Of a stretch of 64,000 bases of DNA, positions 19,423 through 50,146 are shown one piece after another. The notes under the pieces were generated by a model. The model was not told the origin of the DNA, ran no database searches, and saw only the letters and a program-made list of their open reading frames with translations. Source of the DNA: Bacteroidota bacterium (GTDB taxonomy: Bacteria; Bacteroidota; Bacteroidia; JABEUT01); the NCBI GenBank assembly GCA_013285655.1, contig JABDHI010000003.1:1310-65309 (forward strand), written 5' to 3'. Made by a program: the position numbers and the translations under genes. Within the stretch, counting starts at the first letter, position 1, and every line of letters starts with the position of its first letter.

Positions 19423-22400
19423 CTATCGTACTAATAATACATCTCCCTTTTTCTTAATCTCTTGTCCGGTTACCAGTGATGTATTAAGATAATATATATA
19501 ATTGCCAGGGTTCATGGGTTTGCCTTTATAAGTACCATCCCAACCCATGCTAATATCATTGCTTTCAAACACTTTATTCCCCCAACGATCGTATACGGCA
19601 AAATAATAATCCGTTACGCATTCTGCAGTTACGTATAGTACATCGTTATGCCCATCGCCGTTAGGAGAAAATCCTGTAGGTACAAATACATAACCACATT
19701 TTTCAATAACTGTAATAGTTACCGAATCACCGGATTTGCAACCACCGCTATCAGTTATAGTTAGAAAATAAGTACCAGTAACTTTTGGGCTTATTGTAGG
19801 GTCGGGGCAAGTTGCACAGCTAACATCAGTTGTTGGGCTCCATATATACCTATAACCATTGGACACAGGAGTTGTAACTAAGCTTGCGCTACCACCAAGA
19901 TTAATAGTTGTATCACAACATAAAGTTGCAACCGGTATAGATGAAACTATAACAATGGTGCTATCTATAGCCGAGCATGGCCCATTGCTTATTGTAACTG
20001 TATATGTAGTGGTGCTTATGGGTGATGCCGTTGGGTTAGCAATTGAAATTGAACTTAGTCCTGTAGCCGGCGACCACGAATAAGTTGAACCGCCAGAGGC
20101 GCTTAAATTTATTTTCGAACCTGCGCATATGTTCTCTTTGTAACTGCCGACTGATGCGGTAGGTGTTGAATTAACTGTGATAGTTACTGTGCCAGAGCTT
20201 GAGCAGCTGCCGGAAGTACCAATAACAGTATATGTTGTAGATGAAATTGGTGTCGCAGTAATAGGAGTGCCCGTAGTTGATGATATTCCTTTGTTTGGAC
20301 TCCATGTGTATGAAATTGCTCCACTTGCAGAAAGTGTTGTTGAGTCTCCTTTACAAAGTGATGTGCTTGATGAAGATACGATAACTGTAGGAGTTGGGTT
20401 TACGGTGACACTTACTTTAGCTGAATCGACGCAAGCACCGTTTGAACCTACAACAAAGTATGTTATGCTGCTGGAAGGACTGGCAAAAATATTGGCACCT
20501 GTGGTTGAAGATAGTGATGTGTTTGGGCCCCATATATATGTTGTAGCGCCTGTTGCCATAAGGGCAGTCGAGTCGCCGGAACAAATTATAGGATTGGATG
20601 CTGAGACTGTTACGCTTGGTTTGCTAGTAACCTTGATGGGTATTTTAGAAGAATCAGAACAACTTCCATTCTTACCGGTTACTGTATACGTTACAGAGGT
20701 TGTTGGGTAGGTAGTTGTTGTAGCGCCGGTGGTTGAAGTTAATGAAGTGTTTGGGCTCCAGGTATAGGTTGCAGCACCCGTTGCCGATAATTTAGCAGAG
20801 TCACCTTTACAAATAGAATTGGTGGACGCCGATATTGTAACTGTTGGAGTAGGGTTAACAGTAATTGTCTTTAAAGCAGTATCAGAACAGCCTCCGTTTG
20901 AACCTGTAACAGTATATGTTACAGTATTGGTGGGTTTGACAAAGACTGCCGAACCACTTGTTGTTGATAAGCCGGTATTCGGTGCCCAGGTATAGCTGGT
21001 GGCACCATTCGCCGATAATTTGGTAGAATCACCAGAACAGATCGTGGAAATTGAGGCTGAAACCATAACCGTAGGAATAGGGTTAACTGTAATACTTACC
21101 TTAGATGAATCAGAACAACCATTACTTGTGCCAATAACAGTAAACGTAGTATTAGAAGTTGGGCTGGCATAAGTCGATGCTGCGTTGGGAGTTAAAAGGC
21201 TTGCAGCCGGTGACCAAATATAAGTTGTCGCTCCTTTTGCGGAAAGCTTAGTAGAATCTCCTTTGCAGATTGAATTAGCTAAGGCTGACGAAGTAACTGT
21301 TGGAGTTGGATTTACGGTTAATATTACCTTAGCTGAGTCGGTGCATCCGCCGCTATTCCCAATTACTGTATAGGTAATTGAGGTCGCAGGTTTGGCAACC
21401 ACAGTATCGCTTGTAACTGAAGAAAGACCTTTGTTCGGGATCCATATATATGTTGTAGCTCCAGCTGCAAATAAACTGTCAGTGGCTCCAGAACAAATGG
21501 TTGAGTTATGAGTATAAGCAGTAACTGTTGGAGTGGGGTTAATAGTCAGGGTTAATTTGGTAGAATCGGAACAGCCACCGGTGTTTCCAATTACAGTATA
21601 TGTAGTTGTTGAACTCGGGTTAGCAAAGGTTGATGCAGAACCCGGTGTCAAAAGATTTGTATTAGGTGCCCATGTATAGCTCGAGGCACCATTTGCAGAA
21701 AGCTTGGTAGAGTCTCCTTTGCAAATTGTAGTACTTAAAGCTGATGCTGTGATTGTTGGAGTTGTATTTACTGTAATTACAATTTTTGCAGAATCAGAGC
21801 AACTGCCAGTTATTCCAATGACAGTAAACGTAGATGTAGCACTAGGTTTTAAATAAGCTGTATCTGCTGTAGATGTGGACAATCCTGCATTCGGGCTCCA
21901 GGTGTAGGTATTGGCGCCAACAGCATATAAAGTATCGGTTGCTCCAGAACAAACAGTAGCAGCATAAACAGATGCAGTTACTGTAGGAGTAGGATTTACT
22001 GTAATGGTAATTTTCGCAGAATCAAAACAAGTGCTGGTTGTTCCAATTACAGTATAGGTTGTTGTATTAGTAGGGTTGGCAATAACCGTATCTTTTATAG
22101 AAGAAGATAAACTAGTATTAGGGTTCCATGCATAAGTTGTTGCACCTTTTGCAAATAAAGAATCTGAATTACCGGAACAGATTGTAGAGACAGAAGCTGA
22201 TGCCAAAACAGTAGGAGTAGGATTTACCGTAATGGTAACTTTAGCTGAATCAAAACAAGTGCCGGTTGTTCCAATTACAGTGTAAGTTGTTGTATTAGTA
22301 GGGTTGGCAATAACCGTATCTTTTGTGGAAGAAGATAAACCAGTATTAGGGTTCCATGCATAAGTTGTTGCACCTTTTGCAAATAAAGAATCTGAATTAC

Positions 22401-24048
22401 CGGAACAGATTGTAGAGACAGAAGCTGATGCCAAAACAGTAGGAGTAGGATTTACCGTAATGGTAACTTTAGCTGAATCAAAACAAGTGCCGGTTGTTCC
22501 AATTACAGTGTAAGTTGTTGTATTAGTAGGGTTGGCAATAACCGTATCTTTTGTGGAAGAAGATAAACCAGTATTAGGGTTCCATGCATAAGTTGTTGCA
22601 CCTTTTGCAAATAAAGAATCTGAATTACCGGAACAGATTGTAGAGACAGAAGCTGATGCCAAAACAGTAGGAGTAGGATTTACCGTAATGGTAACTTTAG
22701 CTGAATCAAAGCAAGTGCCGGTTGTTCCAATTACAGTATAGGTTATTGTATTAGTAGGGTTGGCAATAACCGTATCTTTTGTAGAAGAAGATAAACCAGT
22801 ATTAGGGTTCCATGCATAAATTGTTGCACCTTTTGCAAATAGTGAATCAGCATTGCCTGAACATATTGTGGAAGCAGAAGCGGTTGCAATAATTGTTGGG
22901 GTGGGGTTTACGGTAATGGTTATAGTTGTGGAGTCGTTACAACTTCCATTGGAGCCAATAACGGTATAAGTGGTCGTTGCTGTCGGCTTGGCTATAACGG
23001 TGTCTGCAGTTGTTGAGTTTAACCCTGTTAAAGGCTTCCAAGTATATAAGGCCCCGCCTTTGGCAATAAGCTTAATAGAGTCACCTGAACAAATTGTTGT
23101 GGCGCCAGATGGTGTGATTGTTATATTAAAAGGTGGAGGGGATGTAATTGTAATAGTGTCAGTAACTGTGCAGCCGGTAACATCTTTAACTGTGCAGGTA
23201 TAGGAGCCTGCACAAAGCCCTGTTGCGGTTGAGGTTGTTTGGACTGGGGTTGTGTTCCATGAATATGTATACCCAGGCGCACCTCCGGAGGTGGCCGCAG
23301 AGGCTTGTCCATCACAAACTCCATTGCATGTTAGGTTCGTTGCGTTTATAATACGTGAAGTCAATTTTACTCTTGTTAATACCCAGGGTGAAAATGTGTT
23401 TTGGTTTGGGATTGGCCCAATCGATCCTATTCCTGTAACTGTACCCAGGCTTCCCGGGCCCGCTTGTAAATCCCATAAAGTGCCATTCCAGTGCTGTGCT
23501 TTGAATGTATCTATGGGGTAAAGAGTAGTATTTTCCGCACCCATATAAGAGAATGTAAGGTTAGCAGTAGTAGGTGCAGAAGTTTCAATATCCCAAAATC
23601 TGTCTATCGCATTATTTACAGAATCGGGGGTGCCCGCCATATTAGTAACTGGCCCTACATCCGTTGCAGTTGGATATGGCACATTTTGCTGGGTTGTATG
23701 CCATGTAGATAAGCTTATGCTTGAGCTGCCCTGTGTTGTTTTGTTGAATGTAAATGGAATGTAGTTGGCTATATTATTACCTATTCCGAAAGGAAAAATA
23801 TAATTTCCTGTATCTGTGCCTGTATTCCACTTAATATAGTTGTATTGAGATTCAGAAGTTATTTGTCCACTACCAAGACGTATAATACCTAGTGTGTCAT
23901 TTTCATTAACAACGAAATAAGTTCCCAATGTGGAGGTACCGCCATTCAATACTATAAAGGCACCATTAATTACTACAGCATTGTTTTGGGAAAAGCCCAA
24001 CACTCTTCCCAAGAGCAATAAAAAAAAGAGTATGTGTTTGGTTTTCAC
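19423..24048 (-). CDS. 1541-aa secreted adhesin. It has a signal peptide, an N-terminal domain, one SprB repeat, about 13 tandem Ig-like domains of 76-78 aa and a T9SS type-B C-terminal sorting domain (19423..19700).
   Basis: SprB repeat LTCNGVCDGQASAATSGGAPGYTYSWN. The repeated modules follow the pattern ...ICSG.SD.L.A.GATTY.W.PN.GLSS......V..P...TTYTVIG..G.C.DSAKV.ITVNP. The C-terminus FVPTGFSPNGDGHNDVLYV...YDRWGNKVF...GWDG...YIYY is a type-B sorting domain. Confidence 0.85.
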   Translation of the reverse strand: MKTKHILFFLLLLGRVLGFSQNNAVVINGAFIVLNGGTSTLGTYFVVNENDTLGIIRLGSGQITSESQYNYIKWNTGTDTGNYIFPFGIGNNIANYIPFTFNKTTQGSSSISLSTWHTTQQNVPYPTATDVGPVTNMAGTPDSVNNAIDRFWDIETSAPTTANLTFSYMGAENTTLYPIDTFKAQHWNGTLWDLQAGPGSLGTVTGIGSIGPIPNQNTFSPWVLTRVKLTSRIINATNLTCNGVCDGQASAATSGGAPGYTYSWNTTPVQTTSTATGLCAGSYTCTVKDVTGCTVTDTITITSPPPFNITITPSGATTICSGDSIKLIAKGGALYTWKPLTGLNSTTADTVIAKPTATTTYTVIGSNGSCNDSTTITITVNPTPTIIATASASTICSGNADSLFAKGATIYAWNPNTGLSSSTKDTVIANPTNTITYTVIGTTGTCFDSAKVTITVNPTPTVLASASVSTICSGNSDSLFAKGATTYAWNPNTGLSSSTKDTVIANPTNTTTYTVIGTTGTCFDSAKVTITVNPTPTVLASASVSTICSGNSDSLFAKGATTYAWNPNTGLSSSTKDTVIANPTNTTTYTVIGTTGTCFDSAKVTITVNPTPTVLASASVSTICSGNSDSLFAKGATTYAWNPNTSLSSSIKDTVIANPTNTTTYTVIGTTSTCFDSAKITITVNPTPTVTASVYAATVCSGATDTLYAVGANTYTWSPNAGLSTSTADTAYLKPSATSTFTVIGITGSCSDSAKIVITVNTTPTITASALSTTICKGDSTKLSANGASSYTWAPNTNLLTPGSASTFANPSSTTTYTVIGNTGGCSDSTKLTLTINPTPTVTAYTHNSTICSGATDSLFAAGATTYIWIPNKGLSSVTSDTVVAKPATSITYTVIGNSGGCTDSAKVILTVNPTPTVTSSALANSICKGDSTKLSAKGATTYIWSPAASLLTPNAASTYASPTSNTTFTVIGTSNGCSDSSKVSITVNPIPTVMVSASISTICSGDSTKLSANGATSYTWAPNTGLSTTSGSAVFVKPTNTVTYTVTGSNGGCSDTALKTITVNPTPTVTISASTNSICKGDSAKLSATGAATYTWSPNTSLTSTTGATTTTYPTTSVTYTVTGKNGSCSDSSKIPIKVTSKPSVTVSASNPIICSGDSTALMATGATTYIWGPNTSLSSTTGANIFASPSSSITYFVVGSNGACVDSAKVSVTVNPTPTVIVSSSSTSLCKGDSTTLSASGAISYTWSPNKGISSTTGTPITATPISSTTYTVIGTSGSCSSSGTVTITVNSTPTASVGSYKENICAGSKINLSASGGSTYSWSPATGLSSISIANPTASPISTTTYTVTISNGPCSAIDSTIVIVSSIPVATLCCDTTINLGGSASLVTTPVSNGYRYIWSPTTDVSCATCPDPTISPKVTGTYFLTITDSGGCKSGDSVTITVIEKCGYVFVPTGFSPNGDGHNDVLYVTAECVTDYYFAVYDRWGNKVFESNDISMGWDGTYKGKPMNPGNYIYYLNTSLVTGQEIKKKGDVLLVR
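21981..22893. repeat. Four tandem 228-bp (76-aa) coding repeats inside the adhesin gene. The two central copies are identical at the nucleotide level.
   Basis: The unit beginning gtaggagtaggatttaccgtaatggtaacttt... recurs at 22211, 22439 and 22667 with a period of exactly 228 bp. Confidence 0.85.
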
Positions 24049-26212: not shown

Positions 26213-29200
26213 CTATTGCTTTATAAACGAAACGACCTGCTCATTGTTATTCAATAGTACTCTCACAAAATAAAAACCTTGGGGCAATGATTGAATATTC
26301 AGTGTTATTGTTTTGCCATTTGTTACTAATGCTTTTTGTGTCATTATTTCTTTACCGCTTAAGTCTATAATTTTTATTTCCGCACTATTATCAGATTGAA
26401 GGCTTTGAACATTAAATACCAAGTTTAACTCATTGTTTGCAGGGTTAGGGTATAGTTCGGTATTTGTATTTTCCATAATTGAATTTATGCCTGTAGGAAC
26501 TACCGTTACAGAAAAGGTGGCAACACCCGAACAACCATTGGTGGTGCCAGTAACCGTGTAGGTCATAGAAATAAGGGGACTGACAATTGTGGTGTCGTAT
26601 AAACTTCCACTTGACCATGAATATGTAGTAGCACCTTTGGCTGTTAATGTATCTCGACTACCTATATTTATATTGCTTGTTCCCGTTATAGTTACAGTTG
26701 GTGTTGGAGTAATAGTTAAATTAAGAGTTAAGGTACTGTCGCAACCTTCTTTATCAGTTAATAATTGAGTTGGCGTACCCGAAGAAGTGTAGATGTTGCC
26801 ATACCATTTAAAGCTATTACAAGCTGAAGCAGTGGTGTCTCCTGTAGTAGGGTTATGAATAGTCAAATGAAGTGTAAGGGTGCTGTCACAACCCGTTTTA
26901 TTTGTTAATATTTCAGTTGGAGTGCCAGATGAGGTATAAACATTACCATACCATTTAAAGCTACCGCAAGCTGAAGCAGTGGTGTCTCCTGTAGTAGGGG
27001 TGTTAATAGTCAGGTGGAGTGTAAGTGTGCTATCGCAACCCGCTTTATTTGTTAATATTTCAGTTGGAGTGCCGGATGAAGTATAAACATTACCATACCA
27101 TTTAAAGCTACCGCATGCTGAAGCAGTAGTGTCTCCTGTAGTAGGGGTGTTAATAGTCAGGTGAAGTGTAAGTGTGCTGTCGCAACCTTCTTTATCAGTT
27201 AATAATTGAGTTGGCGTACCCGAAGAAGTGTAGATGTTGCCATACCATTTAAAGCTATTACAAGCTGAAGCAGTGGTGTCTCCTGTAGTAGGGGTGTTAA
27301 TAGTCAGGTGGAGTGTAAGTGTACTATCGCAACCCGCTTTATTTGTTAATATTTCAGCTGGAGTGCCGGATGAAGTATAAACATTACCATACCATTTAAA
27401 ACTGCTGCATGCTGAAGCGGTGGTGTCTCCTGTAGTAGGATTATTAATAGTCAGGTGGAGTGTAAGTGTACTATCGCAACCCGCTTTATTTGTTAATATT
27501 TCAGCTGGAGTGCCGGATGAAGTATAAACATTACCATACCATTTAAAACTGCTGCATGCTGAAGCGGTGGTGTCTCCTGTAGTAGGATTATTAATAGTCA
27601 GGTGAAGTGTAAGTGTGCTGTCACAACCTTCTTTATCAATTAATGCCTGAGTAGGTGTACCCGAAGAAGTATAGATGTTGCCATACCATTTAAAACTGCT
27701 GCATGCTGAAGCAGTAGTGTCTCCTTTAGTAGGATTATTAATAGTCAGGTGAAGTGTAAGTGTGCTGTCACAACCTTCTTTATCAATTAATGCCTGAGTA
27801 GGTGTACCCGAAGAAGTATAGATGTTGCCATACCATTTAAAACTGCTGCATGCTGAAGCAGTAGTGTCTCCTTTAGTAGGATTATTAATAGTCAGGTGAA
27901 GTGTAAGTGTGCTGTCACAACCTTCTTTATCAATTAATACCTGAGTAGGTGTACCCGAAGAAGTGTAGATGTTGCCATACCATTTAAAACTGCTGCATGC
28001 TGAAGCAGTAGTGTCTCCTGTAGTAGGATTATTAATAGTCAGGTGAAGTGTAAGTGTGCTGTCACAACCTTCTTTATCAATTAATACCTGAGTAGGTGTA
28101 CCCGACGAAGTGTAGATGTTGCCATACCATTTAAAACTGCTGCATGCTGAAGCAGTAGTGTCTCCTGTAGTAGGGTTATTAATAGTCAGGTGCAATGTAA
28201 GTGTACTATCACAACCTTCTTTATCAGTAAACATATGAGTAGGAGTAGCTGACGAAGTATAGGTTGTACCATACCATGTAAAGCTTGAACAAGCTGAAGC
28301 AGTAGTATCTCCGGTAGTAGGATTATTAATAGTCAGGTGGAGTGTAAGTGTGCTGTCACAACCCGCTTTATTAGTTAAGATTTGAGTAGGTGTACCTGAT
28401 GAAGTATAAACATTACCATACCATTTAAAGCTGCTACAAGCTGAAGCAGTGGTGTCTCCAGTAGTAGGATTATTAATAGTCAGGTGGAGTGTAAGTGTGC
28501 TGTCACAACCCGCTTTATTAGTTAAGATTTGAGTAGGTGTACCCGACGAAGAATAAACTGTTCCATACCATTTAAAGCTACTGCATGCTACAGCAGTAGT
28601 ATCGCCAGTATTAGAACATCCGCCCATAACAAAATACCCTAAGCTAACTGTGTTGTCGGAATTATTTATTGAGTTTATTGTTGGAGTGCCATGCAAGGTA
28701 GAGTATGTTCCATTAACAGTAGCACTTGTGGCAATAACATTTAGCGGGCTAATTGCACTAGGACGTGTAAGACCAACAATAGCTCCGGTAAGACTTCCAG
28801 ATGCAACATCTGCATACCAGTATTCAGTATTACTTAATGAGTGAACCGTAATGTTATCCGGTGTTCCTCCGCAATTACTGTTGAACGCTTGTGCCTGCAC
28901 TTGTGGTAATGTACCGGTAGGTGTAATAGTAAAAGGATAATAGCTTGTGCCGTTACCTATAGGATAAGTATAGGCGGTTCCTGATGACAAGTTCCAGTTC
29001 ATTGGACCGTTCACATAGCTTGTTGAAGATGGTGCAACTACTGAGGTAGTTAATGTATCGTTTACAGTTAATAAGTTTGTTGTGGTCGTAGTAAGTAAGC
29101 CATTGGTCAGTGTAAGTATTCCATCTACAGTAGTCGGATTTGATAGAGTTACACCCGCAACATTATTAATATTTAAATTGTTTATAGTGCTTGGCATCGT

Positions 29201-32353: not shown

Positions 32354-32573
32354 TACATTATATTTTAATGGGTCTGATTCTCATTATGTTGTGTTTTGCT
32401 AGCATATATATGTAAGGAAACATCATATTACCAAGTCGTTTTTGTTGTAATAACGAACTAGTAGCGTTAAGCCAATGATTTTTTTATAACATGAATTTGG
32501 GCGAGAACGAGTTTCCACCCTGTGCGAAAAATTAAAAAGCCCCTGATTTCTCAAGAGCTTTTTATCGTTTTAG

Positions 32574-32645
32574 TAGCGGGGGCTGGATTCGAACCAACGA
32601 CTTTTGGGTTATGAGCCCAACGAGCTACCTCTGCTCTACCCCGCA
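32574..32645 (-). tRNA. tRNA-Met (anticodon CAT), initiator-like
   Basis: The reverse complement GCGGGGTAGAGCAGAGGTAGCTCGTTGGGCTCATAACCCAAAAGTCGTTGGTTCGAATCCAGCCCCCGCTA folds as a cloverleaf. The anticodon stem TTGGG/CCCAA places three G-C pairs next to a CTCATAA loop. The T-arm is GTTGG-TTCGAAT-CCAGC. The 1:72 position is unpaired or weak, as in initiator tRNAs. CCA is not encoded. Confidence 0.8.
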
Positions 32646-43089: not shown

Positions 43090-43163
43090 GGTTCGGTAGT
43101 TCAGCTGGTTAGAATGCCTGCCTGTCACGCAGGAGGTCGCGGGTTCGAGTCCCGTCCGGACCG
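43090..43163 (+). tRNA. tRNA-Asp (anticodon GTC)
   Basis: GGTTCGGTAGTTCAGCTGGTTAGAATGCCTGCCTGTCACGCAGGAGGTCGCGGGTTCGAGTCCCGTCCGGACCG folds as a cloverleaf. Acceptor stem GGTTCGG/CCGGACC, anticodon loop CTGTCAC, T-loop GGTTCGAGTCC. Confidence 0.9.
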
Positions 43164-43179
43164 CTAAGAGAAAAAGAAA

Positions 43180-43209
43180 GCCTTCCCGAGTATTTGGGGA
43201 GGCTTTTTT
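43180..43209 (+). terminator. rho-independent terminator after tRNA-Asp
   Basis: Hairpin gccttccc-gagtattt-ggggaggc followed by T6. Confidence 0.6.
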
Positions 43210-43217
43210 ATTATACA

Positions 43218-43475
43218 ATGGAATATAGAGTTTATATACTACAAAGCCAAAAGGATATGTCCTATTACATAGGATATACTTCAAATATCGAATCAAGGTT
43301 AATTGAACATAATTCAGGGTTATCACGTTATACGTCTAAAAAAATTCCTTGGATACTGGTTTATTCTGAGATATGCGTTTCGAAAGGTGATGCTATTAAA
43401 AGAGAGCAATTTTTGAAAAGGCAGAAAAATAGACGGTTCTATGAGAGGTTGATTAATGAAAACAAAACCCATTGA
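43218..43475 (+). CDS. GIY-YIG nuclease family protein (COG2827/UPF0213-like)
   Basis: YRVYILQSQKDMSYYIGYTSNIESRLIEHNSG...IPWILVYSE is the canonical GIY-YIG motif. The start is chosen at the ATG at 43218; the ORF-track start at 43194 lies inside the terminator hairpin. Confidence 0.75.
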   Translation: MEYRVYILQSQKDMSYYIGYTSNIESRLIEHNSGLSRYTSKKIPWILVYSEICVSKGDAIKREQFLKRQKNRRFYERLINENKTH

Positions 43476-43483
43476 ATGCCTGC

Positions 43484-43541
43484 CTGTCATCCCGAGTACT
43501 CGGGTTCGAGTCCCGTCCGGACCGCTAAGAGAAAAAAAAGC
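43484..43541 (+). repeat. Chimeric duplicate of the 3' half of tRNA-Asp (tRNA fragment, att-like direct repeat)
   Basis: gaatgcctgcctgtca + tcccgagtact + cgggttcgagtcccgtccggaccgctaagag matches the tRNA from the anticodon-stem arm to the 3' end, including the downstream aagagaaaaa. The central 12 nt are replaced, giving a cccgagtactcggg hairpin. Confidence 0.7.
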
Positions 43542-43566
43542 CTCGCAGAAATGTGGGGCTTTTTTG
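43538..43566 (+). terminator. rho-independent terminator after the tRNA fragment
   Basis: Hairpin aagcctcgcagaaatgtggggctt followed by T6. Confidence 0.45.
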
Positions 43567-43667
43567 TTTAACTAACCGAGCACAAAGTCGGCAATGTAAT
43601 ATTCCACGGGCAATAGACCAATAACATCCCAATAAACAAAATAAAGCCAGTAAGAAATTTTGATTTT

Positions 43668-47041: not shown

Positions 47042-49990
47042 TTGAATCTTAGAATGAACGAGAAAAGGTTTATTACTTTTTTTATTCCGGCATCATTTCT
47101 TTTGCTTGTTTTTTGCGCTTTTTACTATAAAGGTACGGTTGACTCGGGCGATAGTGTTATGCATTACCTGTTTGCAAGGTTTGCCATAAACCATCCTGAA
47201 AGTTTCCTGAACCCATGGGCAAAGCCATTATATGTAGCACTTGCGACTCCTTTCGCCCAATTGGGTTTTATTGGTATAAAGCTGTTCAATTGCGTTAATA
47301 CAATTCTATCAATGCTGGCTGCTTATTTAATTGCCAAAAAGCTGAACATGAAAAATAGCTGGTTGGTACCTGTATTGCTTTTGTTGGCACCCATGAATTT
47401 TGCCCTTTCTTTCTCAGGTTTAACAGAGCCCTTGTTTGCTTCTGTAATAATTGTTGGTTTGTGTTTTCTTGTTTACGATCGTACTACTACAGGCCTTATA
47501 ATTCTTTCCTTTTTACCTTTTGTACGCTCTGAAGGTATGTTCCTGCTTATGGCAGTTGGCTTGTATTTAATAACTCAAAAAAAGTACAGAAGCATAATAT
47601 GGCTGGCAACCGGCCAGGTTGTTTATGCTGTTATAGGGTATTTTCATTTTAAAGATTTGTTGTGGTTTTATCACAACAATCCTTATTCTATGTTCAGTTC
47701 TTATGGCGATGGACCCTGGACAGATTATATAGATAACTTACCCTTAGTAGCAGGCTCTGCAACGTATTACTTAATTCTTGCAGGTTTTATAACTGCTCCG
47801 TTTACATTACTTAAAAAAGAAAACAAGAAGGACAACTGGCAGCTTATGCTTATTTGGACCATGGCTACTATGTATTTCTTCTTTCATGTTATATCATGGA
47901 CATTTGGGTTGTTCGGCTCGTTTGGTATGGCGCGTGTAATTGTGGGTATAATGCCATTGAGCGCTATACTTGCAGTATATGGCTTTAATAATATTATTAC
48001 GCTCGTTACTCCGGGGCTGTTTACTTATATAAAACAAACCTATAATGGATTAAAACCGCAATTTGTTTTTTATGCTATTATGTTACTGTTTGGTTTTATA
48101 TACGGTTTAATGGCTGTAGCCAATCACTATTTTTTCCGATCTACAGCATTTGACTTTGGACCATATAACTATGCGTTTTGGGATTATGCACATTTTCATG
48201 TAACGCCTTGCCCTATTTATAAGGTATTCTTCCCTATGAATGTTACATTCTTGCAAGATCATTTTTCACTTTTGCTAATGTTTCTTGCTCCTTTCTATTG
48301 GTTGCTAAACTGGTTAACGGGTACTTATACATTGTTACTTATACAAACCGGTTTTATTTTATGGGGGGCTTGGGCAATTTACAAACTGGTTGAACTTAAG
48401 ACCAAAGACGGATGGTTAGCGGTAGGGGCCGTATTGTATTTCTTTTTGTTACAGGGTAGGTATTCGGCTTTTGATGAGGATTGTAATATTATAATAATGG
48501 CATCCTGTTTTGTTCCATTGTTCTTATGGTTCTTCGAATCGAAGCGATATGTTGCTGCGTTGGTAATATTTATAGCTGCTGTTTTTTCAAGAGAAGATAT
48601 GTCATTATGGTTTGCATTTATACCTGTAGTATTAATTATATGGCATTGGAAGGAAAGGAAACTTGTGTATGTATCTATAGGTTATATACTGGCTTCTGTT
48701 ATTTGCTTTGTTTTAATTTTTAAGGTCTTTATACCTATGGTTCAATCTCCCGATAGGAAATATGACCTGTTTACCTATTCTGCTCTAGGTAAAGATCCTC
48801 TGGAAGCTTTGAATTATATACTAGGGTACCCTTTAAATGCCTTTACGCTATTATTCAAGAACCAATCGGGCAACCACGATTACGATAGCGTGAAAATGGA
48901 ATTCTATATGGTTTACCTGGTTTCGGGCGGGTTTGTATTATTTTATCGCCCCAAATATTTCATTTGGTTCCTTCCTCTCATTGCTCAAAAAATGTTTAAT
49001 GATGAACCTATTCGTTGGAGTATTGAGTCCTATTATTCTGTACAAGTAGCAACACTTTTACCAATACCGGTGTTTTTAATTCTTGCTAACGATAAAACAA
49101 AATGGCGTTATGGTTTAGCAATTTTAGTATGTGCGCTGGCCTTAACGGTTACACTGTATGATAATAATCCTTACAATCGCAAATTGGGTTACGCTGAGTC
49201 CATTAAGAGGAATATATTTAACTCAAAATTCTTTTTACCCGGCTATGATGCCGCCGCCATACATCACGATCTGCAAGAGATTCCTAAATATGCCAGCGTA
49301 TCGGCTTCAGCATCTATATTACCACATTTAGCTCAGCGTAAAAATATTTATGAATTTCCGGATATAGAGAATGCGCAGTATGTTGCTGCATTAACTTCAC
49401 CTGATTATTTTGCGATGCCTTCAGAATTTTACACCCAAGAGCTTTTTAATAAATATGTGTTTAATTCGGATTGGCAAATAATTCGATATGACGCACCATT
49501 TGTACTGTTGAAAAAAATATATGCTACAAACAGAACAAATAGTTATGAAAGTATTGTGTGTGACGCAGAGACTATGAGCCCTGATGGTAAGCGTTTAGTT
49601 GCCACTGGTGGAGTACTGCTGGACAACGATAGCGCCACCTGGAACACTGAACATGTGAGGCATGGAAAGCACTCTGTAAAACTTACTAAAGAAAAGCAGT
49701 ATGGAATGACTTTACGCATGGAGAAGTTTACCGCAGGCGATTTTGTATTGGCAAGTGTTTGGCGTTATTCTGCCAATAAAGACAAAGGTGCTCTTGTTGT
49801 TTCGGGTAATGGTATGTATTTACCATCTACTAAAAGTACGGCGAAAGACTCAGCTGGGTGGGAACAGCTTACTGTTTTCTTTATTATACCAGATAACCAT
49901 CAGGACCTGGGAGTTTATATTTGGGATAATAGTGATGACCCGGTTTGGTTTGATGATATGGAAGTGAAAAGATTAAAAGCACACCAATAA
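47042..49990 (+). CDS. 982-aa polytopic membrane protein. It is a GT-C-fold-like glycosyltransferase candidate with a C-terminal beta-sandwich domain.
   Basis: More than 12 predicted TM helices. An acidic motif (DSGDSVMHY) lies in the first extracytoplasmic loop, as in GT-C enzymes. The soluble C-terminal domain of about 250 aa is rich in beta-strand-type sequence. Confidence 0.5.
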   Translation: MNLRMNEKRFITFFIPASFLLLVFCAFYYKGTVDSGDSVMHYLFARFAINHPESFLNPWAKPLYVALATPFAQLGFIGIKLFNCVNTILSMLAAYLIAKKLNMKNSWLVPVLLLLAPMNFALSFSGLTEPLFASVIIVGLCFLVYDRTTTGLIILSFLPFVRSEGMFLLMAVGLYLITQKKYRSIIWLATGQVVYAVIGYFHFKDLLWFYHNNPYSMFSSYGDGPWTDYIDNLPLVAGSATYYLILAGFITAPFTLLKKENKKDNWQLMLIWTMATMYFFFHVISWTFGLFGSFGMARVIVGIMPLSAILAVYGFNNIITLVTPGLFTYIKQTYNGLKPQFVFYAIMLLFGFIYGLMAVANHYFFRSTAFDFGPYNYAFWDYAHFHVTPCPIYKVFFPMNVTFLQDHFSLLLMFLAPFYWLLNWLTGTYTLLLIQTGFILWGAWAIYKLVELKTKDGWLAVGAVLYFFLLQGRYSAFDEDCNIIIMASCFVPLFLWFFESKRYVAALVIFIAAVFSREDMSLWFAFIPVVLIIWHWKERKLVYVSIGYILASVICFVLIFKVFIPMVQSPDRKYDLFTYSALGKDPLEALNYILGYPLNAFTLLFKNQSGNHDYDSVKMEFYMVYLVSGGFVLFYRPKYFIWFLPLIAQKMFNDEPIRWSIESYYSVQVATLLPIPVFLILANDKTKWRYGLAILVCALALTVTLYDNNPYNRKLGYAESIKRNIFNSKFFLPGYDAAAIHHDLQEIPKYASVSASASILPHLAQRKNIYEFPDIENAQYVAALTSPDYFAMPSEFYTQELFNKYVFNSDWQIIRYDAPFVLLKKIYATNRTNSYESIVCDAETMSPDGKRLVATGGVLLDNDSATWNTEHVRHGKHSVKLTKEKQYGMTLRMEKFTAGDFVLASVWRYSANKDKGALVVSGNGMYLPSTKSTAKDSAGWEQLTVFFIIPDNHQDLGVYIWDNSDDPVWFDDMEVKRLKAHQ

Positions 49991-50117: not shown

Positions 50118-50146
50118 CGCCCCGAGTATTCGGGGCGTTTTTTTTA
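50118..50146. terminator. bidirectional rho-independent terminator between convergent genes
   Basis: A7, then hairpin cgccccga-gtat-tcggggcg, then T9. Confidence 0.8.

Follow-up and report, generated by a model that had tools for sequence, protein, structure and literature searches.

The window analysed here is a stretch of 64,000 nt from contig JABDHI010000003.1 of a Bacteroidota bacterium (assembly GCA_013285655.1; positions 1,310-65,309, forward strand). It contains an intact tRNA-Asp(GTC) gene followed by a small cassette, which consists of a terminator, a gene for an 85-amino-acid (aa) single-domain GIY-YIG nuclease, a broken copy of the tRNA in which one part is replaced by a hairpin (the pseudo-copy) and a second terminator. 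Judged from its sequence and from that of its relatives, the gene-plus-hairpin unit has the look of a selfish DNA element of a very small and so far undescribed kind.

Architecture of the tRNA-Asp cassette

A first-pass annotation, made from the letters of the window, had described an intact tRNA-Asp, two terminators and a 258-bp GIY-YIG open reading frame (ORF) that stops at a duplicate of the tRNA 3′ half. The tRNA is recovered by ARAGORN and Rfam, the ORF by Pfam, and both terminators fold strongly (Table 1). T runs follow both terminator stems, and a simple consensus terminator scan picked up neither of them. The nuclease gene ends in a TGA (43473-43475) whose last two bases are also the first two of the duplicate.

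The duplicate is built differently from that description. An exact 36-nt block that includes the trailer is indeed repeated (E=9e-15 within the window), but the copy does not start at the anticodon-stem 3′ arm, which, with the variable loop, is the replaced part, and an additional 16-nt exact block lies 5′ of the swap. The breakpoint falls exactly after A37, as annotated. The 12 nt of tRNA at this point (CGCAGGAGGTCG; anticodon-stem 3′ strand and variable loop) are exchanged for 11 nt (TCCCGAGTACT), and the exchange creates a 14-nt palindrome, CCCGAGTACTCGGG, at 43491-43504. The swap and its hairpin had been correctly seen, but they are not a chimeric junction: the same 16-nt hairpin is conserved in many phyla. 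The first 4 nt of the 3′ block of the pseudo-copy also belong to the hairpin. The frame of the 361-bp insert is arbitrary inside the 36-nt repeat, 43176-43536 being equivalent to 43140-43500.

Table 1. Features of the tRNA-Asp locus, in window coordinates.
Feature	Position	Strand	Evidence
Intact tRNA-Asp(GTC)	43090..43164	+	ARAGORN; Rfam RF00005 67.9 bits at 43090-43163; identical to L081 tRNA
tRNA-Asp anticodon GTC; A37	43124-43126; 43127
Direct repeat copy 1: T arm, acceptor 3′ strand, 11-nt trailer TAAGAGAAAAA	43140..43175	+	36-nt exact match to 43501-43536
361-bp insert; removal restores L081-like empty site	43140..43500	+	361-nt start-to-start repeat spacing; three-way alignment with L081, L082
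Terminator 1	43174..43212 (stem 43174-43209 plus T run)	+	RNA fold -23.0 kcal/mol, z -5.35
GIY-YIG nuclease gene, single-domain, 85 aa (MEYRVYILQS...)	43218..43475	+	ORF list; Pfam PF01541 E=1.4e-15
Pseudo-copy 5′ block GAATGCCTGCCTGTCA: D-stem 3′ strand, anticodon-stem 5′ strand, loop through A37	43474..43489	+	16-nt exact repeat of 43112-43127
Hairpin motif TCCCGAGTACTCGGG in place of tRNA positions 38-49	43490..43504	+	Palindrome; same motif at this position in 37 loci; covariation
Pseudo-copy 3′ block = direct repeat copy 2: T arm, acceptor 3′ strand, trailer	43501..43536	+	36-nt exact match to 43140-43175
Terminator 2 = native tRNA-Asp terminator	43534..43568	+	RNA fold -19.1 kcal/mol, z -6.1; orthologous to L081 terminator

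Rfam calls the duplicate as no RNA family, returning weak leader and terminator look-alikes only, and the pseudo-copy, folded as RNA or as DNA, is no more stable than shuffled sequence, which makes a functional tRNA-like RNA unlikely. In an independent Logan contig of this species, the sequence ends at precisely the point at which a k=31 assembly graph would reach the 36-nt repeat, and this end point argues against misassembly of the duplication. No further copy of any cassette part is found in the 64 kb and no GIY-YIG paralogue is present in the window; a weak match at 48809-48916 falls within a DUF2079 membrane protein and was judged to be a chance match. The ORF list, PADLOC and PHROGs gave no integrase, phage family or defence family.

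Terminators 1 and 2 share an AAAGCCT...GGCTTTTTT outer stem, and terminator 1 looks like a copy of the native terminator 2. Its inner TCCCGAGTATTT stands where terminator 2 has CGCAGAAATGT. As in the tRNA swap, a stretch has been replaced, and CGCAG opens both replaced stretches.

Insertion into an empty locus

For comparison of the same locus, contigs of the closest homologues of the neighbouring desaturase gene were retrieved (L081-L084). In the closest relative found (L081; desaturase 86% identical), the same promoter region and tRNA-Asp are followed directly by AAAAAGCCTCACAGAAATGTGGGGCTTTTTTG, which corresponds to terminator 2 of the window, and the locus has no ORF, no duplicate and no hairpin. 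The tRNA-Asp locus is likewise empty in L083 and L084 (desaturase 72%). In L082 (desaturase 74%), an ORF-less hairpin remnant, TTGCCTGTCA-TCCCGAGTACTCGGGA-CGGGTTCG-TCCAGACCGC, lies 13 nt after the tRNA. The window cassette is an insertion, and one locus is seen in empty, filled and decayed states.

The first-pass annotation had read the region as the footprint of a tiny tRNA-targeting insertion, free of an integrase, which supplied a new tRNA 3′ end and displaced the old one. The clean empty site in L081 bears this out, as does the lack of an integrase in the 361-bp insert; relatives with empty sites speak against an ancient arrangement common to them all. The native terminator now lies 3′ of the broken copy, which marks the 3′ part of the intact tRNA, together with terminator 1, as the 'new' side.

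Distribution and architecture of homologous loci

A scan of one genome per GTDB species, with a 13-sequence family alignment as the query, returned 211 relatives, and the locus-level counts given here refer to the best 80 of these (350 kb of locus sequence). A full tRNA-Asp(GTC) lies at most 500 nt from the ORF in 55 of the 80 loci, in every case on the ORF strand (33 upstream, 22 downstream), and other tRNA-associated copies, whose absence would have spoken against the first-pass annotation, are present in many genomes. Six loci, all from more distant homologues, adjoin tRNA-Lys, Ile, Pro or Glu. In twelve of the remaining 19 the contig runs out within 300 nt upstream, and L076 is the sole locus of the best 80 without any tRNA trace. 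Carriers belong to many orders of Bacteroidota, to Ignavibacteria, Chlorobiota, KSB1 and Aminicenantia, and to several groups of the candidate phyla radiation. In a protein library, 6,838 cluster representatives match this family at E<=1e-3 and 527 at E<=1e-10.

Two layouts recur. In type A, as in the window, the tRNA is followed by a terminator, the ORF and a hairpin-bearing pseudo-copy that runs from the D loop on (e.g. L003, L022, L055 and L072). In type B, a pseudo-copy comprising positions 1-37, the hairpin and a partial T arm precedes the ORF and an intact tRNA (e.g. L012). Units are often in tandem: L027 (2000-5234) contains at least eight units of 388 bp, and the 407-bp units of L060 (2800-4480) contain a pseudo-tRNA with two hairpins, in which the anticodon arm and the T arm are both replaced. 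Tandem arrays are likewise found in L003, L012, L046 and L048. Arrays of ORF-less pseudo-copies precede intact tRNA-Asp in L055 (1860-2200; 139-bp period) and L028 (1800-2340; 84-bp period), each unit having its own upstream spacer. Strains of Marinifilum flexuosum have one or two units behind the same five tRNA-Asp genes, and many homologue loci run into contig breaks.

In distant homologues beside tRNA-Lys and tRNA-Ile, the anticodon arm of the pseudo-copy is exchanged for a TCCCGAC/TCCCGAT hairpin, and in one homologue beside tRNA-Pro it is the T arm of the pseudo-copy that is replaced by a hairpin. These loci (L056 2388-2500, L061 1805-1960, L067 360-410 and 760-800, L069 2010-2085, L070 2840-2890) come mostly from metagenome-assembled genomes of the candidate phyla radiation, and their hairpins read TCCCGAC, TCCCGAT or CCCCGAG. 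The pseudo-tRNA-Lys of L056 has, in addition, a 46-nt long-hairpin insert in the D loop.

Genes at these loci are systematically miscalled in the databases, as seen in P0076, P0202 and many other proteins. N-terminal extensions of 20-60 aa are translated upstream tRNA or pseudo-tRNA (P0076: ...GFESRP...), and the 214-aa P0202 consists of two tandem copies fused, with two matched stretches. A search for proteins identical to the 72-aa database form of the window ORF gave no record.

A conserved hairpin within tRNA-derived sequence

After A37, unrelated genomes share the consensus ...CTGTCA, followed by the hairpin TCCCGAG-NN-CTCGGGA and then by CGGGTTCGAG.... The 80 loci contain 170 perfect hairpins, vs 0.35 in shuffled and 0 in reversed sequence, and nearly all lie within tRNA-derived sequence. 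Their position in the tRNA copy varies: 61 sites (37 loci) after A37, 37 after ~G30, 29 in the T loop and 8 in the D loop, plus others elsewhere. Wherever it is present, the hairpin takes the place of 9-13 nt.

The stem covaries. Among 19 distinct hairpin sequences, all 114 cells of the six stem pairs are paired and two of the six pairs vary on both sides; as these sequences were chosen as hairpins, the percentage paired is biased, and the compensatory types are real. Variants that keep the pairing include TCTCGCC/GGCGAGA, TCCCGCC/GGCGGGA, TCCCGAC/GTCGGGA and TCCCGAT/ATCGGGA, and these four segregate with separate protein clusters. Hairpin variants that track protein clusters in this way are the pattern that would be expected of a protein and its site.

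Relative to the consensus TCCCGAG-TA-CTCGGGA-CGGG, the window hairpin has lost five bases (ACGGG), including the closing A and the following C, a loss that in sequence terms is a slip between two CGGG repeats. By analogy with Neisseria (see below), this copy may no longer be a good substrate. The inner part of terminator 1, TCCCGAGTATTTGGGGA (43184-43200), is a degenerate form of the hairpin motif with three mismatches to the hairpin consensus. The window may thus have a hairpin-gene-hairpin layout, as around Neisseria ssnA; with a 13/15 match and ~0.1 such matches expected by chance, this is suggestive only.

The nuclease and its characterised relatives

The Pfam GIY-YIG domain spans residues 4-72 of the 85-aa protein, leaving no linker or DNA-binding domain. 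Residues Y6, Y17, R27, H31, N32 and E63 are invariant in the family alignment. Scans with PADLOC, PHROGs and NCBIfam returned nothing meaningful. A literature search for any tie between GIY-YIG, Ssn or UPF0213 proteins and tRNA-Asp or partial tRNA genes found only the papers on Ssn and on SegB to be relevant.

Chenal et al. (Nat Commun 2025, PMC11893778) described the Ssn proteins, single-domain GIY-YIG enzymes of ~94 aa (CDD cd10448). Ssn binds the hairpin repeat CGTCA-TTCCCGCG-MAV-GCGGGAA-TCYRG solely as single-stranded DNA and cuts a few nt upstream; cutting depends on the three bases before the palindrome and binding on the C after it, which in Neisseria is the base most critical for binding (PMC11893778). 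Ssn genes typically have such motifs on both sides, and the published Ssn-related motif is HGTCWYN(0-2)YYVSBRHN(0-5)WNVSBRGN(0-2)RNCYNB (PMC11893778). A protein was assigned to cd10448 if a proteome search by BLASTP matched it to Nm SsnA at E<1e-10 with 75% coverage or more, or if its top CDD hit was cd10448 (PMC11893778). The cellular role of Neisseria SsnA has been measured: SsnA/NTS limits recombination with incoming DNA in transformation (PMC11893778). The paper mentions neither tRNA nor Bacteroidota (PMC11893778).

An SsnA orthologue of Neisseria gonorrhoeae was recovered for comparison; it has 94 aa and residues Y6, Y17 and E64, with 16 NTS repeats within 3.2 kb. Its source, L085 (NZ_CP119140.1, 2.17 Mb), is a complete N. 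gonorrhoeae chromosome filed as a plasmid with 12 annotated features. Residues Y6, Y17 and E63 of the window protein align with Y6, Y17 and E64 of the orthologue. Over the full length the two proteins share 37% identity; the E value is 4e-12 pairwise and 5e-4 by tblastn in 7.3 Gb. On plasmids of Azospirillum and Rhizobium, canonical Ssn genes have as flanking motifs CGTCA-TCCCCGCG-AAG-GCGGGGA-TCC and CGTCA-TCCCAGGG-...-CCCTGGGA-TCC.

The likeness to Ssn extends beyond the size of the protein, its single domain and its catalytic residues. In Neisseria and here, a hairpin with a TCCC...GGGA core begins a few bases from the stop codon on the gene strand. The commonest tRNA-embedded site is TGTCA-TCCCGAG-TA-CTCGGGA-C, in which the Asp anticodon loop (T33-G34-T35-C36-A37) provides the GTCA flank; the 5′ flank TGTCAT fits the published HGTCWY and a C follows the palindrome. 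In both systems, hairpin variants pair with protein variants and the architecture is insertion-sequence-like. Unlike the dispersed, genome-wide Ssn repeats, the hairpins here sit inside tRNA pseudo-copies at the tRNA locus, and their flanks differ by position. The published motif, which has 9 matches in the Neisseria locus and 4-5 in the Azospirillum and Rhizobium loci, does not match here. A survey by that motif would overlook the whole class of tRNA-embedded hairpins. When the Neisseria cut site was mapped on the tRNA, it fell between C28 and T29, 2 nt from the second recurrent hairpin junction, but this was considered too indirect and was not counted as evidence.

The resemblance of the protein to UPF0213 equals or exceeds that to Ssn. 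UPF0213/YhbQ (cd10456) proteins have the same size and are the best match among solved structures (PDB 1ZG2 and 1YWL; E ~1e-7) and small reference profiles; the only other structural match is SLX1, and no SsnA structure was among the matches. They differ in having GxGAKYT where the window protein has GLSRYTS (GLSRYTSKKIPW vs GKGAKYTRGRGP in BH0048 and Radiobacillus); the one UPF0213 gene examined belongs to a methyltransferase housekeeping operon and has neither a hairpin nor a tRNA gene beside it. Ssn is the nearest described system, and the protein is only a candidate member of the Ssn family.

A pairing of a small protein with short, multiplying hairpin repeats that are recognised as single-stranded DNA is also known from REP/BIME with RAYT (Y1) and from IS200/IS605. 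There the enzyme fold is HUH/Y1, whereas here it is GIY-YIG, and the repeats are intergenic and genome-wide, not in tRNA copies.

A proposed mode of propagation

The cassette is probably a dynamic nuclease-plus-hairpin module. The reading favoured here, with a probability of about 60%, is that the region is a minimal selfish nuclease-plus-hairpin module at a tRNA-Asp gene, which uses tRNA sequence as homology. Conservation of the hairpin at several pseudo-copy positions in many phyla points to a nuclease recognition element, and we infer that this is its function. Since the protein is a bare catalytic domain whose nearest characterised relatives act on single-stranded DNA hairpins, classical double-strand homing is not the best model.

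It is proposed that the nuclease would recognise its own hairpin on single strands exposed by replication, transcription or DNA uptake, and would nick beside the hairpin, by analogy with Ssn. Breaks at this point would leave ends carrying tRNA sequence, which could recombine with intact tRNA-Asp genes because the tRNA is near-identical between copies and species. Such recombination would expand arrays locally and, more rarely, would put the unit at an empty tRNA-Asp locus, one intact tRNA always being retained. A single crossover between the unit and the last ~25-36 nt of the resident tRNA would give exactly the arrangement seen in the window. This single-strand mechanism is put forward tentatively, its chances being judged a little short of even.

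Several observations weigh against the module reading or the mechanism attached to it. Recognition of the hairpin by this particular protein is something that we infer, and the published Ssn-related motif has 0 matches in the window and in L001-L084, where two to three substitutions would be needed. The GTCA flank is present at the commonest hairpin position only, GCCTG, GGGTT or GGTTA standing elsewhere, and away from that position the base after the palindrome is A or T, not C. The family hidden Markov model gives 52-66 bits to three sequences of UPF0213 and 47-56 bits to three of Ssn, and a small UPF0213 profile is preferred by all 30 family members. The window ORF lies behind a strong terminator with no space for a promoter of its own. 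Only one filled/empty pair was found for this locus. The trailer and the outer terminator stem are duplicated as well, so a distant donor is not the source of the whole duplication, at least part of which arose on the spot or was acquired from a very close relative. Finally, the proposed model leaves unexplained the replacement of 9-13 nt by a constant hairpin at several positions.

A bolder form of the module reading, possible but held with more doubt than confidence, is that these loci represent an undescribed class of minimal autonomous mobile element of ~320-400 bp. Such an element, made up of a gene for a ~85-aa nuclease and a 16-nt hairpin, would hitch-hike on tRNA genes and enter empty tRNA loci across species and phyla. 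The hairpin would overwrite one arm of the tRNA copy, and single-strand breaks that the nuclease makes beside it would use the conserved tRNA as a portable homology arm, both for local duplication and for entry into empty loci. Sister clades would each have tRNA-Lys, Ile, Pro or Glu as their speciality. To our knowledge, an element of this kind would be smaller than any known autonomous insertion sequence or homing-endonuclease gene.

Alternative explanations

The first-pass annotation had suggested that the nuclease could itself be the homing activity. If it were a classical GIY-YIG homing endonuclease of the free-standing type, it would break both strands of cassette-free tRNA-Asp, repair from a cassette-bearing allele would copy the gene in, and the hairpin would be no more than an immunity change in the displaced copy. 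A GIY-YIG domain is present, the target is highly conserved, and filled and empty alleles exist, with L081 empty, the window filled and L082 holding a remnant. Homing endonucleases of the Seg and I-TevI type combine an N-terminal GIY-YIG domain with a C-terminal DNA-binding domain in a total of ~200-250 aa, whereas the 85-aa window protein has nothing outside its catalytic domain. It reaches only E=0.03 with the group I intron endonuclease model TIGR01453, far below its cut-off, and it has no PHROG family match; a search of 2.9 million viral contigs gave no relatives. In 55 of the 80 loci, the gene adjoins a tRNA-Asp that is intact and presumably open to cutting. Furthermore, a mere immunity scar would not stay one sequence across phyla, covary, track protein clades and occur at five or more positions.

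A useful comparison here is phage SegB, a GIY-YIG homing endonuclease that is enriched by tRNA genes and drives segmental amplification (PMC13096335), and the arrays described here are similar. The cassette shares with SegB and the T-even free-standing GIY-YIG genes a position by tRNA genes, tandem segmental amplification and presence/absence polymorphism. Unlike the window protein, SegB is a phage-borne enzyme of ~220 aa with a DNA-binding domain, which cuts duplex DNA and shows no isotype preference, and it comes without a hairpin and without tRNA pseudo-copies. Classical homing is considered unlikely.

In a second alternative, also improbable, the module is domesticated and useful to its host, managing the tRNA-Asp cluster; it might, for instance, raise the copy number of tRNA-Asp or keep recombination with incoming DNA in check. 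This would fit the many loci with two to six tandem intact tRNA-Asp genes just upstream (e.g. L019, L034 and L086), a family that is very large and mostly intact (the 6,838 representatives noted above) and the precedent of Neisseria SsnA. However, close relatives do without the cassette, an ORF-less remnant exists in L082, and the amplified material consists mostly of broken, not functional, tRNA copies. In the window, the hairpins are restricted to the locus and are not spread through the 64 kb.

It is hardly credible that the region is what an integrase-mediated element (attL/attR) left behind, or a tandem duplication that was fixed long ago and has an ORF by chance: a direct repeat of the tRNA 3′ end does flank the insert, as in tRNA-integrating islands (PMC9897764), and as in tyrosine-integrase islands and prophages the insert lies at a tRNA gene with one tRNA intact and the displaced partial 3′ copy as the repeat, but the entire difference from the empty site is 361 bp, not kilobases, with the GIY-YIG gene as the sole ORF and no integrase; the pseudo-copy has a 5′ block and an internal hairpin replacement that are absent from att sites; arrays form and copy number differs between strains; and dozens of unrelated genomes contain the same unit of ORF, hairpin and pseudo-tRNA. 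A group I intron or a split tRNA was also rejected, as only ~60 nt of non-tRNA sequence lie outside the ORF, which leaves no room for a ribozyme.

Other features of the window

The second tRNA gene of the window, tRNA-Met(CAT) at 32573-32645 (-), has no GIY-YIG gene, partial copy or hairpin nearby. At 50120-50135, between two convergent genes with ends at 49990 (+) and 50167 (-), a palindrome, CCCCGAGTATTCGGGG, has an A run and a T run on its two sides. It has a core like that of the hairpin motif but lacks any tRNA context, and is most simply read as a bidirectional terminator. Two tandem repeats of coding size, at 26729-28614 (147 bp x 12.8, 89% matches) and 21983-22920 (228 bp x 4.1, 94% matches), are probably coding sequence for repeated domains in large surface proteins.

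Significance

If the nuclease recognises the hairpin, then hairpin-directed single-strand DNA nucleases, a one-year-old discovery, would extend to a second large protein lineage of hundreds to thousands of 50%-identity clusters; on the minimal-element reading, they would reach beyond the Ssn clade. New nuclease and hairpin pairs would also become available for work with single-stranded DNA. The module reading, if true, would explain a widespread source of the tRNA fragments and tandem pseudo-tRNA arrays which, in genomes of Bacteroidota and candidate phyla, mislead tRNA annotation and interrupt assemblies. The biological role of the family would then be that of a self-propagating element living on tRNA genes, and the cassette illustrates how little sequence a mobile element may need when a universally conserved gene serves as its homology arm.

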